Source: a virus
Lineage: Duplodnaviria > Heunggongvirae > Uroviricota > Caudoviricetes
Length of the DNA stretch: 11,731 bases
Strand: one strand, 5' to 3'
Virus record (IMG/VR): IMGVR_UViG_2778261527_000005
Under the pieces are notes generated by a model. That model was given only the letters and a program-made list of their open reading frames with translations, was not told the origin of the DNA and did not search any database. Of this stretch, positions 3,007-6,342 are shown piece after piece (within the stretch, counting starts at the first letter, position 1; the number at the start of each line of letters is the position of its first letter). A program made the translations under genes and the position numbers.

Positions 3007-3903
3007 CTATGACTGGCTGTTTTCAGTAAGAGTCTTATCATCCAAAGAATTTATTTTAGAAATTCTTTTTAACTCATTAAGATAATCAACCTCGTTTTCT
3101 AAGAACCAATGAAGAACTTTAGAGTTGCCAAGTAATTTATTAATATATGACTGGATTATAACGAATTTCAACATATCTGAACCATACTCGGTTTGAAGTT
3201 TTTTTGTTTCTTCCGAAGTTGTTGCCATTTCTTGTTCCAGACGAAGTATGGTTTTTTTTATGTCCTTTTTATAGGGAGTGTTTTTCCCTTTATTTACTAT
3301 CATCGATGACGGTGTTGCATCCAAGATGCTCATTGCAAATTTTTTACTATAATTATCAAAATTAATCATTGTACCGACTGCTTCAATTTGACGAATTGGC
3401 TTCATTTTCCTCAAAACGTCAAATGTAGCCTTAGGTATAGGTTTATCAGAAAGTTTCGCAATTACACTTGGATCTATGCCGTTCATCACATTAGCTTTAT
3501 CTTTTATGGCATCAACAGATATGCCCAAAGCGGCACTAAGTTTTTCAATTGATACTTTTGCCAGAGACTTAATTATCATTCTATGTTCTTCAACTACATT
3601 TATATGATTCACTTGTTTGTTAGGAGTGAAAGCATCATCTATGCTCGAAAGTATACATGGAGCTTTTTCTATACCTAAGTCTTTTAAAGCCTCAACCCTT
3701 AAATGGCCATCAAGTATCTTAGTGACATCTTTATCTTTGTCATAGAATACTATTATTGGTTCAATAATACCTAAGCTTTCGATAGAGGTAACTATTTGAT
3801 GATATTTATGGCTTCGCTTTACGTTTTCTAATAATTCCTTAGATGGAATTAACTTATTAGTTTCCAGGTAAATAAAATTATCGCCAAAACGTATCTGAAT
3901 CAT
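3007..3903 (-). CDS. ParB-like N-terminal domain protein with predicted HTH (paralogue 2), third gene of the recombinase operon
   Basis: 298 aa. Contains a ParB/Srx-type motif (KILDGHLRVEAL) and a helix-turn-helix-like segment. Start codon overlaps the stop of the upstream gene (ATGA, 3900-3903). Same length as, and recognisably paralogous to, the 3900-4796 product. Confidence 0.65.
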   Translation of the reverse strand: MIQIRFGDNFIYLETNKLIPSKELLENVKRSHKYHQIVTSIESLGIIEPIIVFYDKDKDVTKILDGHLRVEALKDLGIEKAPCILSSIDDAFTPNKQVNHINVVEEHRMIIKSLAKVSIEKLSAALGISVDAIKDKANVMNGIDPSVIAKLSDKPIPKATFDVLRKMKPIRQIEAVGTMINFDNYSKKFAMSILDATPSSMIVNKGKNTPYKKDIKKTILRLEQEMATTSEETKKLQTEYGSDMLKFVIIQSYINKLLGNSKVLHWFLENEVDYLNELKRISKINSLDDKTLTENSQS

Positions 3904-4796
3904 TTTAATACCTCTTTGTTTACTGGGGTTAATATCTGAGATGGTAGTTCTGAAAGATTCTCTTGTTCAAGTATATGTTGAAAGCTTTTATTCATCATTA
4001 TGATGTTAAAAATCTCATTTACTATTAGTAGGTTGGTTTTTATGAATTTTGAGTTGTTATAAACAGATTTATGTTCAGCGATACTATTTTCATAAAGCTC
4101 AATCAACTCCTCTGCAGTCATCCTTTTTGATGGTTTGTGATAATAAAATCCGGCTGCTTTTGCACCTTTATTCCCAACTGTTCTTTGATTTAGAATGTGT
4201 TTTATCTTTATAATGTCCCGACTTTTTATTAATTTTTTATCATATGCTTCGGTAAGAATATCTTGTGCTTCCTCAGTTTCACATCTTGCAAATTGCACTG
4301 CGAGATACAGAGGCAAATTACCCCGTTCGACTGCTGAGAGAAGTTTATGCTCTCCCTTATCAAGTAGCATATTAATACTGCTCACCCAGTTCGATGAATA
4401 TCCAGTAATCTCACTTATTTCGGAGTCTGAAAGTCCTCTGATTTTCATGTCTTTAATCACCTGTAATAACTCATTAGAACGTGGTCTTCTCCTTGCAATG
4501 TTTTCAACTAAACTCATAACGTAAGCATCTTCTTCTGATACATCTCTTATAATTGCTGGAATAATAGTTTCACCTAATGCAACGAGAGCCTCTATTCTCC
4601 CTTGACCACAAATTAAAGCATATTTGAAATCGCCTTCATCAATAGCTCTTACGCTTATAGGCTTGCTTAATCCTCTTTTTTTTATGCTTTCCTTTATTTC
4701 TTCATGCACTACCTTATTTCTTGTTCGTGGGTTAAGAAATTTTATTTTTGCAATCTCAATTTGAATTATTGGGAATTCATTTTTTTCAGGCAGCAT
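3900..4796 (-). CDS. ParB-like N-terminal domain protein with HTH (paralogue 1), second gene of the recombinase operon
   Basis: 298 aa. ParB-type motif (YALICGQGRIEALVALG) followed by an HTH-like segment (GLSDSEISEITGYSSNWV). Start at 4794-4796 overlaps the recombinase stop (4786-4788) by 11 nt, with GAGGGA as Shine-Dalgarno. Confidence 0.65.
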   Translation of the reverse strand: MLPEKNEFPIIQIEIAKIKFLNPRTRNKVVHEEIKESIKKRGLSKPISVRAIDEGDFKYALICGQGRIEALVALGETIIPAIIRDVSEEDAYVMSLVENIARRRPRSNELLQVIKDMKIRGLSDSEISEITGYSSNWVSSINMLLDKGEHKLLSAVERGNLPLYLAVQFARCETEEAQDILTEAYDKKLIKSRDIIKIKHILNQRTVGNKGAKAAGFYYHKPSKRMTAEELIELYENSIAEHKSVYNNSKFIKTNLLIVNEIFNIIMMNKSFQHILEQENLSELPSQILTPVNKEVLK

Positions 4797-6342
4797 ATAG
4801 TTCCCTCACTTTCATGCGAGTAATAATTTGTAGAAGTTTATCAAGATTATCAAATCTATAGAGATCTAATCGAATGTTGTTTGTTTCCGTCATGCACATT
4901 TTATTATATTCGTTTTCAATCTTTGGTATGATATAAAAATCAAGAGGTGAAATATTTTGTGAATTCATTCGTATAACAATTGTTATGTCTGCTTTCTGTG
5001 AGTTATCAAACCGGACTTTCCATCTAAGTTTACCTGATTTCATATGTATGCATTTAGTAACAAGGACGGAAATTAAAAACTCATCATTGATGTAAAGCAT
5101 TGGGGCATATTTATACTCGTCTATATGACAGTTACTTTTTAAAATTTCACCCTTAAAATCCTCAATTATCTCTGAGTAAAATGATCTTAGTGCTTCATTT
5201 ATTTTGAGATAGCTGTAATCATGTTCTGGCTTATAACCAATCAAAGTATATGCTCTTAAAAGACCACCAAATCGGGTTCTATAAACAGAAGATGAAGGGC
5301 CTGTATCATCTTCATCAATGATAAAGCCTGATAGTTTTCCATTAGATTCTAATTTTTGTTTTAGTTTTTCTAATAGATCTTCATTAGTCAAATGAATGGA
5401 TCGGAGCTGAATTATTTCTTGAGCTTTATTGTATTTTTTCTTTGAAATAATAGGTTTATATGCCTTGTCACATCTAACCCATTCATGTTTGGGGTTTTTT
5501 ACAAGCCTACTTTTTAATTTAGATGAGGTTTTGTTATATATGTTGTTTCCAATATATTTTTCATTTGTCAAAATTTGATGTATTTTTGCACGAGTCCATA
5601 ATGTTCCATTTTCTGCAGGTATGTTCTGTTCATTTAATCTCTCAGCAATAATGAATTCTGGGACGTTATTATCTATAAAGAGATCATATATTCTATTTAC
5701 AATTTTTATTTCATTTTTTGGTCCCGGAATTAATATTACCCTATCTGTTTGAATACTCTTTCTTTTGCGGAAACTCAATATTTCTTTAGCTATGCCATTT
5801 TCGTCTACTAAAAGACGTCTCAGCCCATAACCAGCCATACCGCCTTGATGATAACCAAGCTTTATTAAATTTACTTGCCCTATAAATACCTTTTCAGATA
5901 GATTCCTGCTGTGATATGCAGCACTAGATCTTTTTATATTCAGTATAACAGAGGACTCTAAAGGGAAATCTTTAGTGGGTATAGGTTCGGAACAATATAT
6001 AAGATCTACACCATTTCTCTCAAATAGAAAGGAATAATATGCCGCTTCATCACTATTTTGAAAACGACCAAAACGGCTCACATCATAAAATAATACAGCC
6101 TGTATATCTATTTTCTTTTGTTCTACATCGCTAAGTAACTGCTGCAAAGAATGCCTGCCTACGATACTGACTCCGCTCTTACCTGCATCATCGTAGGTAT
6201 AAGCGATTTCCATATTGTTCTTTTCAGCATAATCTTTGATATATTCGGACTGATTATGTAAAGAATATTGCTGATGGTCGGTAGACATCCTCAAGTACTG
6301 CGCGACCCTAACTCTATGATTTTTTTCATTTTCGCTAGCCAT
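4786..6342 (-). CDS. Large serine recombinase (resolvase-type catalytic domain plus recombinase domain)
   Basis: 518 aa. The N-terminus carries serine-recombinase catalytic motifs (YLRMSTDHQ with the nucleophile Ser, DDAGKSG, VLFYDVSRFGR), followed by a recombinase-domain-like region (WTRAKIHQILTNEKYIGN). GAGG Shine-Dalgarno upstream of the ATG at 6340-6342. Confidence 0.8.
   Translation of the reverse strand: MASENEKNHRVRVAQYLRMSTDHQQYSLHNQSEYIKDYAEKNNMEIAYTYDDAGKSGVSIVGRHSLQQLLSDVEQKKIDIQAVLFYDVSRFGRFQNSDEAAYYSFLFERNGVDLIYCSEPIPTKDFPLESSVILNIKRSSAAYHSRNLSEKVFIGQVNLIKLGYHQGGMAGYGLRRLLVDENGIAKEILSFRKRKSIQTDRVILIPGPKNEIKIVNRIYDLFIDNNVPEFIIAERLNEQNIPAENGTLWTRAKIHQILTNEKYIGNNIYNKTSSKLKSRLVKNPKHEWVRCDKAYKPIISKKKYNKAQEIIQLRSIHLTNEDLLEKLKQKLESNGKLSGFIIDEDDTGPSSSVYRTRFGGLLRAYTLIGYKPEHDYSYLKINEALRSFYSEIIEDFKGEILKSNCHIDEYKYAPMLYINDEFLISVLVTKCIHMKSGKLRWKVRFDNSQKADITIVIRMNSQNISPLDFYIIPKIENEYNKMCMTETNNIRLDLYRFDNLDKLLQIITRMKVRELYAA

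Follow-up and report, generated by a model that had tools for sequence, protein, structure and literature searches.

Why would a large serine recombinase and two paralogous ParB-like proteins be encoded together, with no ParA partner beside them? The question is raised by a stretch of 11,731 nucleotides (nt) in a Caudoviricetes record (IMG/VR IMGVR_UViG_2778261527_000005), the whole of which we call the window. The window is 100% identical to positions 1201331-1213061 of Escherichia coli strain H2 (NZ_CP028733.1) and lies in the island hot spot at ssrA. A sequence-only reading had described a three-gene operon that matches neither a classical partition system nor any defence system it could name, and had proposed a new DNA-targeting or maintenance system, or a small nested mobile element. 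Our own answer is tentative. We give a probability of about 40% to the idea that this triad is an accessory-controlled site-specific recombination or maintenance module of mobile elements, in which the two ParB-type proteins (ParB-A and ParB-B) would act as a nucleotide-gated DNA-binding pair that controls the recombinase (rec).

Conservation and maintenance of the triad

All three genes are encoded on the minus strand of the window. The first, rec (4786-6342), is the large serine recombinase of 518 amino acids (aa). It is followed by ParB-A (3900-4796, 298 aa), which is ParB/Spo0J/Noc-like with Pfam matches to ParB_N and RepB, and by ParB-B (3007-3903, 298 aa), a divergent ParB-A paralogue with a Pfam match to RepB. 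These open reading frames (ORFs) overlap by 11 nt (rec/ParB-A) and 4 nt (ParB-A/ParB-B); coordinates and overlaps reproduce exactly what the sequence-only reading had given. Shine-Dalgarno-like sequences lie within the preceding gene in both cases, GAGGGAA upstream of the ParB-A ATG and AAGAGG upstream of the ATGA stop/start overlap at ParB-B. Together with the overlaps, they agree with a single coupled operon. The GC content of the operon is 29-37%, compared with 44-48% for the adjoining P4-type integrase, so that the description of the triad as AT-rich cargo directly behind that integrase is accurate.

The same arrangement recurs in many other bacteria. Searching plasmids with tblastn, we found genes for rec (43-46% identity) and ParB-B (33-37%) side by side on pAtC58 of Agrobacterium fabrum, on a Piscinibacter plasmid, on a Pseudomonas aeruginosa megaplasmid and on many Sinorhizobium, Sphingobium and Burkholderia replicons. 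A scan of GTDB (one genome per species, with a four-sequence rec alignment) confirmed at least 576 relatives among the 600 pattern matches listed, and the best 80 loci of these relatives were surveyed for the triad. The 80 loci span alpha-, beta- and gamma-proteobacteria, Desulfosarcina, Myxococcales, Bdellovibrionaceae, Terriglobia, Melainabacteria and Armatimonadetes. ParB-A is the next gene after rec in 80 of 80 loci. ParB-B follows ParB-A wherever the contig continues, save at one locus (L045), where none was detected in the ~1.7 kb of contig that is left. Protein sizes are about 520, 298 and 298 aa across the loci, and the overlaps are mostly 4 nt. In a HMMER search over 1.84 billion cluster representatives, ParB-B clusters (at 50% identity) numbered 113 at E<=1e-30 and 494 at E<=1e-10. 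Regularity of this order is much more than chance would give, and we regard the triad as obligate and ancient. The sequence-only reading had named conserved co-occurrence of the three genes as a check, and the 80 loci bear it out very strongly.

A few records from these searches deserve comment. The 13-kb plasmid of 'Lactiplantibacillus plantarum' (L105, NZ_CP110863.1), with its proteobacterial-type triad and a GC content of 62-71%, is a high-GC contaminant contig, probably mislabelled, and was rejected. A mislabelled record is also probable where a contig from a 'Halothiobacillus' metagenome-assembled genome and one from Pararhodobacter (L031 versus L048) share 97% identity over 11 kb. Short metagenomic contigs with rec, considered as possible circles, turned out to be ordinary assembly fragments. 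In Dyella jiangningensis (CP007444.1) the triad regions at 190 kb and 5.24 Mb (L065 and L066) are 100% identical over the 17.5 kb fetched, which indicates either that a large region was duplicated recently or that a repeated element spans 17.5 kb or more.

A ParA partner is missing throughout. A scan for ORFs of at least 150 aa with a ParA/MinD-type Walker A motif (KGGxGK[ST][TS]) was empty in the window and in 83 related loci within ~8 kb, and no member of the ParA family is found among the neighbour genes of triad loci. Scanning with PADLOC-DB v2 gave no system match: rec and ParB-A had no match of any kind, and the sole match of ParB-B was to the N-terminal, ParB-like part of a model for a type II methyltransferase. 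Among NCBIfam models, the matches to CcrB, RepB and Noc are all far below cut-off, and only the generic ParB domain model passes, for ParB-A only. With no ParA and no system match in PADLOC, the earlier impression that the triad fits neither classical partition nor a named defence system is confirmed.

In E. coli, 655-657 of 5,426 complete genomes (~12%) carry the triad, always on the chromosome and in one copy; BL21(DE3) derivatives are among them. At the DNA level it was not found in plasmid or phage collections. Proteins that are 96-100% identical occur in Cronobacter, Klebsiella, Citrobacter, Enterobacter and Salmonella. The P4-type integrase is always accompanied by the triad in complete E. 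coli genomes, and in AMSCJX04, H6 and the BL21-type strain Nico21(DE3) this integrase adjoins the tmRNA gene directly, with the triad coming next. A second context is the tRNA-Arg island of I2-type strains, where the block consists, in this order, of a truncated integrase, the triad, an integrase fragment, TIGR04141/DUF6119 and Hxs genes.

The triad is the only intact cargo of the decayed ssrA island in the window, and in BL21-type strains integrase and triad are the sole remainder of the island. From a comparison of the window with the H6 and I2 copies, which have 95% identity, we obtained ratios of nonsynonymous to synonymous substitution rates (dN/dS) of 0.07-0.11 for rec, 0.06-0.07 for ParB-A and 0.03-0.05 for ParB-B. 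Because dN/dS is low in all three genes, the triad is maintained by strong purifying selection and shows no decay.

The recombinase and its ParB-type partners

Pfam assigns to rec a Resolvase domain (PF00239, 7.7e-22) and a Recombinase domain at residues 210-312 (PF07508, 6e-22). In 74 homologues, residues S20 and R18 and the SRxGR motif are invariant or nearly so. The domain assignments of the sequence-only reading, including the catalytic serine in YLRMSTDHQ and GxxR-type motifs in both ParB proteins, therefore stand. Among PDB sequences, rec aligns with SprA/YokA residues 189-310, and its best NCBIfam match is CcrB. The PHROG 95 profile ('integrase') covers only residues 3-399 of rec, corresponding to profile positions 80-443 of 651. 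For the C-terminal ~200 aa there is no Pfam match, no PDB relative by profile search and no CxxC pair; just one cysteine of rec is conserved in the homologue alignment, and Pfam finds no zinc ribbon. In phage large serine integrases, it is a zinc-ribbon/coiled-coil region that binds the att sites and controls the direction of the reaction. Since PHROG 95 stops at residue 399, the last 200 aa are unmatched and a zinc ribbon is missing, rec is, judged by these profiles, a large serine recombinase with a different C-terminal domain that lacks the zinc ribbon and the coiled coil.

ParB-A matches ParB_N (1.6e-13) and RepB (8.5e-08) and scores 60.6 bits against TIGR00180, above the cut-off of 58.45. 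Its best matches among PDB sequences are Spo0J (1vz0), ParB (7bnk) and Noc (7ng0), and KorB structures align as well. Three motifs, LNPRxRN, CGQGRxEA and VENxARR, are invariant or almost invariant in the 74 homologues. The latter two we take to be the GxxRxxA and ENxxR elements of the cytidine triphosphate (CTP)-binding pockets of ParB proteins. The layout of ParB-A consists of a predicted N-terminal nucleotide-binding domain, a helix-turn-helix (HTH) and a RepB-type C-terminal region. Going by its sequence, ParB-A has all the parts that define a ParB protein (N-terminal CTP-binding domain, HTH and dimerisation domain), and ParB-B has them only in part.

The match of ParB-B to RepB is strong (5e-24) and that to ParB_N weak (1.1e-05, 25.8 bits against a gathering threshold of 26.3). 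In the 74-homologue alignment, ParB-B keeps LDGHxR and is without the ENxxR motif. Its profile matches Noc and Spo0J structures. With hhalign, 266 columns of ParB-A and ParB-B can be aligned (probability 97%, E 4e-11), and by this measure the two proteins are full-length paralogues. Because one member of this obligate pair has a degenerate nucleotide site, a ParB-A/ParB-B heterodimer is suggested. The sequence-only reading had also pointed to the DGQHR/DndB and DUF262 branches of the ParB/Srx fold. That link is loose: a DGHxR motif is present in ParB-B, yet this protein is a full-length paralogue of ParB-A, itself a canonical Spo0J/Noc-like ParB without a ParA, and carries no nuclease fusion.

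How could these proteins work together? ParB-A and ParB-B would form a heterodimer or a mixed oligomer through their RepB-type C-terminal regions, and the pair would load near the operon in a nucleotide-dependent manner. It could then recruit, position or license rec, and so supply the site selection or directionality for which rec lacks the C-terminal domain. The reaction would serve the carrier element, either by resolving or stabilising a plasmid or excised form, or by moving or rearranging adjacent cargo.

We favour such a recombination or maintenance module for the following reasons. First, the catalytic core of rec is intact and the zinc-ribbon/coiled-coil region is missing. Second, the triad is obligate in the 80 loci, with conserved sizes and 4-nt overlaps, and is also found on plasmids. 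Third, the ParB paralogues keep the pocket motifs asymmetrically, and ParB-A resembles the CTP-clamp proteins ParB, Noc and KorB. Fourth, there is no ParA in 84 loci, and the carriers are mobile elements (the ssrA island, the tRNA-Arg island, megaplasmids and Tn7-like transposons) in which the triad adjoins core genes, int or tniQ. Fifth, the genes are under purifying selection and are retained in BL21-type strains after all other cargo has been lost. Sixth, near-identical triads occur as discrete blocks in different contexts. Finally, the ssrA-island modules of Dehalococcoides offer a precedent (PMC3146451).

Several points weigh against this explanation. We found neither a recombination site nor a product, nor any polymorphism in the form of an excised, inverted or empty site, and the combination of integrase and triad is invariant in E. 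coli. There is also no inverted-repeat pair that bounds an invertible segment, and an inversion system is therefore not supported. The AlphaFold model of rec came from a shallow alignment, had a mean predicted local distance difference test score (pLDDT) of 55 and was not used for a fold search. Both nucleotide binding and the interaction of the ParB proteins with rec are things we infer from sequence. Furthermore, Tn7-like carriers lack an episomal form to be resolved, and the many defence and toxin genes among the neighbours would suit a defence role just as well.

A candidate site upstream of rec does not help much either. The leader between the integrase stop codon, which it abuts, and the rec start (283 bp, 6343-6624, minus strand) contains a nested dyad of 50 bp, TATGTGGACT..CCATTTacAAATGG..AGTCCACATA (6513-6562), which occurs once in the window and has outer arms of 10 bp, inner arms of 6 bp and a central AC. 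The similarity of the integrase 3' flank to the flank of the downstream integrase fragment (see below) ends at the left arm of this dyad. It may be a protein-binding site or a terminator of the integrase gene. In the I2-type copies the symmetry is degraded, and the genes are intact under selection. This weakens the case for an essential site, and the dyad is perhaps simply a terminator. Palindromes that could be parS-type centromere sites lie upstream of rec but differ by lineage; examples are CCATTTacAAATGG of E. coli and, in Rhodobacterales, a tandem GGCACAAnTGTGCC. No single one is conserved family-wide, and those outside E. coli travel with the regulator region, not with the triad.

Possible alternatives: mobility, defence and plasmid housekeeping

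Could the triad itself be mobile? With the short non-coding stretch at its 3' side, and an upstream regulator where a lineage has one, it could form a nested integrative cassette that rec inserts into or behind core genes (integrase, tniQ or an HTH gene), bringing a replacement 3' end. We consider this unlikely. Evidence for it comes from three independent loci where the 3' end of the gene upstream of the triad is repeated, imperfectly and in direct orientation, on the far side. In E. coli H6/I2, the repeat is of the integrase gene (~230 bp, 82% identical) and starts just before the HxxR box. In Paracoccus onubensis (L057), it is of tniQ (242 bp, 88% identical) and ends ~10 bp past the stop codon. 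In Parvibaculum (L051), it is of an HTH gene (348 bp, 79% identical). The C-terminal integrase fragment of H6 lies 108 bp downstream of ParB-B (L007 8642-8892; the same in L006 and L089-L098). The histidine of its HxxR box is replaced (NRMR), and the fragment is missing from the window.

Elements that rebuild the 3' end of a gene on insertion leave repeats of this kind. However, tandem accretion of related elements followed by deletion explains them equally well. The E. coli repeat in particular can be explained in this way, because C-terminal fragments of integrases are common at ssrA as the usual debris of decay and because the integrase is cut at another point in I2-type strains. Matches to the 74-aa integrase fragment were considered as evidence of insertion and rejected; they are only short ORFs from frameshifted or decayed integrases at ssrA, with no triad upstream.

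A second line of evidence comes from Paracoccus, where near-identical triads (L049 and L052) share a block of 3,566 bp at 94% identity within otherwise different flanks. The borders are sharp: the block begins ~25 bp ahead of the rec codons for AYVRMST and ends 213 bp past ParB-B, just after a GC-rich hairpin. This places rec at the extreme end of the common block, as tnpX is placed at the end of Tn4451. Two divergent copies of the triad can also share one genome (L021/L046). Against a cassette, we found no empty site in the E. coli genomes and plasmids searched. In the 5,426 E. coli genomes there was none for the junction of TIGR04141 and the integrase fragment or for the integrase itself, and among plasmids there was none for the tniQ-fragment junction of L057. 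Each E. coli genome has a single copy, with the same integrase every time. The Agrobacterium, Piscinibacter and Pseudomonas loci have no long flanking repeats, the boundaries of the block vary by lineage and the joined flanks of L052 give no reconstituted gene. Hence, for the nested mobile element of the sequence-only reading, repeats and sharp borders are suggestive, but the picture is ambiguous and no empty site has turned up.

Beside the operon end of one locus (L038), the 118 bp downstream of ParB-B are doubled (4126-4243 and 4982-5100, ~740 bp apart); L039, which is 95% identical, has them once. The difference points to a small insertion that came with a long duplication.

Anti-phage or anti-plasmid defence, in which the ParB pair senses or loads on foreign DNA and rec cuts or rearranges it, is also improbable in our view. 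The triad does occupy typical cargo positions, as the first gene after the P4-type integrase and the first cargo after tniQ of Tn7-like elements. Its flanks are not conserved between loci and are made up of variable genes of mobile elements, toxin-antitoxin pairs and defence systems. Among the nearest neighbours are integrases, other resolvases, TniQ, transposases, HTH regulators, Fic, HipA, AbiEii, McrBC, ThsB-TIR, WYL, DUF4238, methyltransferases and AAA/RloB pairs. One could argue that the presence of DarT1/NADAR, McrBC, AbiEii, ThsB-TIR, HipA, Fic, DUF4238 and RloB/AAA pairs speaks for defence, as does the occurrence of ParB/Srx domains in DndB and GmrSD-type proteins. Serine recombinase genes have been reported as markers of defence loci, but the same preprint treats recombinases as linked markers beside defence systems and not as effectors (PMC12632615). 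PADLOC has no matching system model, and the triad is essentially absent from phage genomes and common on large rhizobial and Pseudomonas plasmids. To our knowledge, there is no precedent for a serine recombinase as a defence effector. Moreover, derivatives of E. coli B/BL21 keep all three genes intact. Phages T1-T7 have E. coli B as their classical host, and B derivatives are fully permissive for T1-T7 and lambda. The anti-phage role that the sequence-only reading had entertained thus finds no direct support.

Ordinary plasmid housekeeping, a ParB partition protein and a multimer resolvase left over from a known element, would agree with the RefSeq names ('ParB/RepB/Spo0J family partition protein' and 'recombinase family protein'), the RepB matches in Pfam and the presence on repABC-type megaplasmids, but it is essentially excluded by the lack of ParA in 84 loci, by ParB paralogues that come as two and never as one, by 655-657 E. 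coli copies that are all chromosomal with none on a plasmid, by scores far below the cut-offs of RepB/partition equivalogs (35.6 bits against 201.5 for TIGR03454 and 21.4 against 522 for PRK13866) and by the triad of pAtC58, which lies among AbiE and Fic genes and not among replication or partition genes.

In some lineages the triad has additional companions. One is a divergent HTH protein of ~120-170 aa encoded upstream of rec, present in 21 clustered loci, in L052 and in a human-faecal contig labelled phage; a small divergent ORF is similarly placed in the Agrobacterium and Pseudomonas loci. In many relatives, the 21 clustered loci and four others among them (L003 6520-6927, L005 6486-6839, L106 4258-4773 and L057 4326-4715), the divergent gene lies 60-170 bp upstream of rec, and where tested it encodes an HTH protein. 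In nine loci, a co-oriented gene for a zinc-ribbon-like protein of ~150 aa stands in place of the divergent gene.

Another companion is a motif of ~116 nt in 27 alphaproteobacterial loci, on the strand of ParB-B and a few to ~90 nt past its stop codon (plus strand 11358-11473 in L031; also in L021, L046, L048, L049, L052, L082 and 20 more). The motif is better conserved than the triad genes. It forms three hairpins, with 97.4% of cells paired and 13 pairs that show compensatory changes; none of 500 shuffles reaches the observed values, and slid controls collapse. The many G-U pairs fit an RNA of ParB-B's strand, and the near-invariant loops argue against a programmable guide. Rfam has no family for the window or for the new motif. 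Because the RNA model has no match in E. coli, Agrobacterium, beta- or gamma-proteobacterial loci, the RNA motif is a lineage-specific partner and no universal component. The E. coli triad has none of these companions (divergent HTH regulator, zinc-ribbon-like ORF and 3' RNA). Its short 3' flank (2959-3006, minus strand) contains a weak hairpin (2975-3006).

The surroundings of the triad in the window are those of an array of elements. The P4-type tyrosine integrase of the ssrA island (6625-7935, minus strand; annotated as 409 aa, 6625-7854) matches Arm-DNA-bind_3, Phage_int_M and Phage_integrase in Pfam and NF007246 with 444 bits. At the integrase-proximal end of the island lies the att repeat, a copy of the ssrA 3' end (8012-8050, plus strand) with 97-100% identity to that of many genomes. 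Because the window holds this att copy and the true ssrA lies beyond it, the window is one unit in a tandem array of elements at the tmRNA gene. Between the att copy and the true ssrA follow a DarT1/NADAR pair, a lambdoid integrase remnant and a P2-like prophage in tandem. On the other side, the sequence shared with the H6-type locus stops 46 bp past ParB-B and is followed by an annotated IS3 fragment (2822-2933) just beyond the 3' flank of the operon; hence, the island in the window is heavily decayed.

Three neighbouring regions are recorded here as well. Between the att copy and the second integrase, at 8179-9495 (plus strand), the window encodes a DarT1 single-stranded DNA ADP-ribosyltransferase (PF14487) and a NADAR antitoxin (PF22397, E 1.6e-89). 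At 9528-11498 (minus strand), it carries this second integrase, a tyrosine integrase of lambdoid type (Arm-DNA-bind_2), together with a small xis-like ORF that overlaps it and two phage-like ORFs; this region is a prophage remnant, since truncated tail-fibre genes come next in the source genome. At 618-1856 (minus strand), a 412-aa ankyrin-repeat protein, which is unusual in E. coli, matches the PADLOC candidate PDC-M72A (E 4e-14).

Precedents and significance

How does the triad compare with known systems? Large serine recombinases such as those of phiC31, Bxb1, TP901-1 and A118 and SprA of SPbeta resemble rec in their serine catalytic and 'recombinase' domains. In this family a separately encoded accessory protein, such as a directionality factor, is the rule. 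Unlike these recombinases, rec has no zinc-ribbon/coiled-coil match in its last 200 aa, and its accessory genes encode two ParB-type proteins. For the three-gene architecture, the closest precedent comes from the Anabaena fdxN element, in which the large serine recombinase XisF depends on two small accessory proteins encoded with it, XisH and XisI. However, the ParB proteins are unrelated to XisH and XisI, for which Pfam finds no match in the window, and in contrast to the fdxN trio the triad is far more widespread and has no tie to developmental excision.

The ssrA-island integration module of Dehalococcoides, with genes for DsiB, DsiA, a RecF-like protein, ParBc and Mom, likewise places a CcrB-like large serine recombinase and a ParB-domain protein at the edge of an island (PMC3146451). 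It differs from the triad in having six genes, a second small recombinase, a single ParBc protein of 210 aa and an embedded tRNA-like locus. Furthermore, the serine recombinase is itself the ssrA integrase in Dehalococcoides (PMC3146451), whereas in E. coli the P4-type tyrosine integrase has that role.

ParB-A shares with Noc and KorB the N-terminal motifs and the HTH, matches their structures by sequence and has no ParA encoded nearby. Noc, KorB and VirB are ParA-independent CTP switches of the ParB family. Unlike these, ParB-A belongs to an obligatory pair of paralogues with one degenerate member, coupled to a recombinase, and the pair is known here from sequence alone. TnpX of Tn4451/Tn4453 has a catalytic domain related to that of rec (PDB 2mhc) and is encoded at the end of its element, similar to the Paracoccus block, which starts in the first codons of rec. 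In contrast to the triad, TnpX elements carry no ParB genes. The 'methylase/ParB' of phage WO was considered as a related case and proved unrelated.

In full-text searches of the literature we found no description of the triad, and a 2025 survey of ParB-fold proteins includes RepB-type fusions and never mentions recombinases. The composition of the triad matches none of the closest precedents; what is new is a ParB-type accessory pair for a serine-recombinase module. One could go further and propose that a heterodimeric, nucleotide-gated clamp of the ParB type replaces the zinc-ribbon/coiled-coil region as targeting or directionality device, that it has a dedicated structured RNA in alphaproteobacteria, and that the whole is perhaps a minimal element nested in the core genes of other elements. 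We regard this fuller picture as rather doubtful.

If the recombination reaction is indeed controlled by a CTP switch of the ParB type, then two well-studied and so far unconnected machineries would be joined, and recombination could be gated in a new manner. Among the major tools of genome engineering are the large serine recombinases, for which both the choice of site and the direction of the reaction depend on the C-terminal domain missing from the rec family. The idea is directly testable, since BL21(DE3)-type laboratory strains carry an intact triad, as does about one in eight E. coli sequenced so far. The RNA motif is a further addition, a structured RNA of no known class whose genetic partner is fixed. 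Finally, the triad is among the longest-persisting genes of decaying islands, and it bears on how cargo is kept or lost at hot spots such as ssrA.

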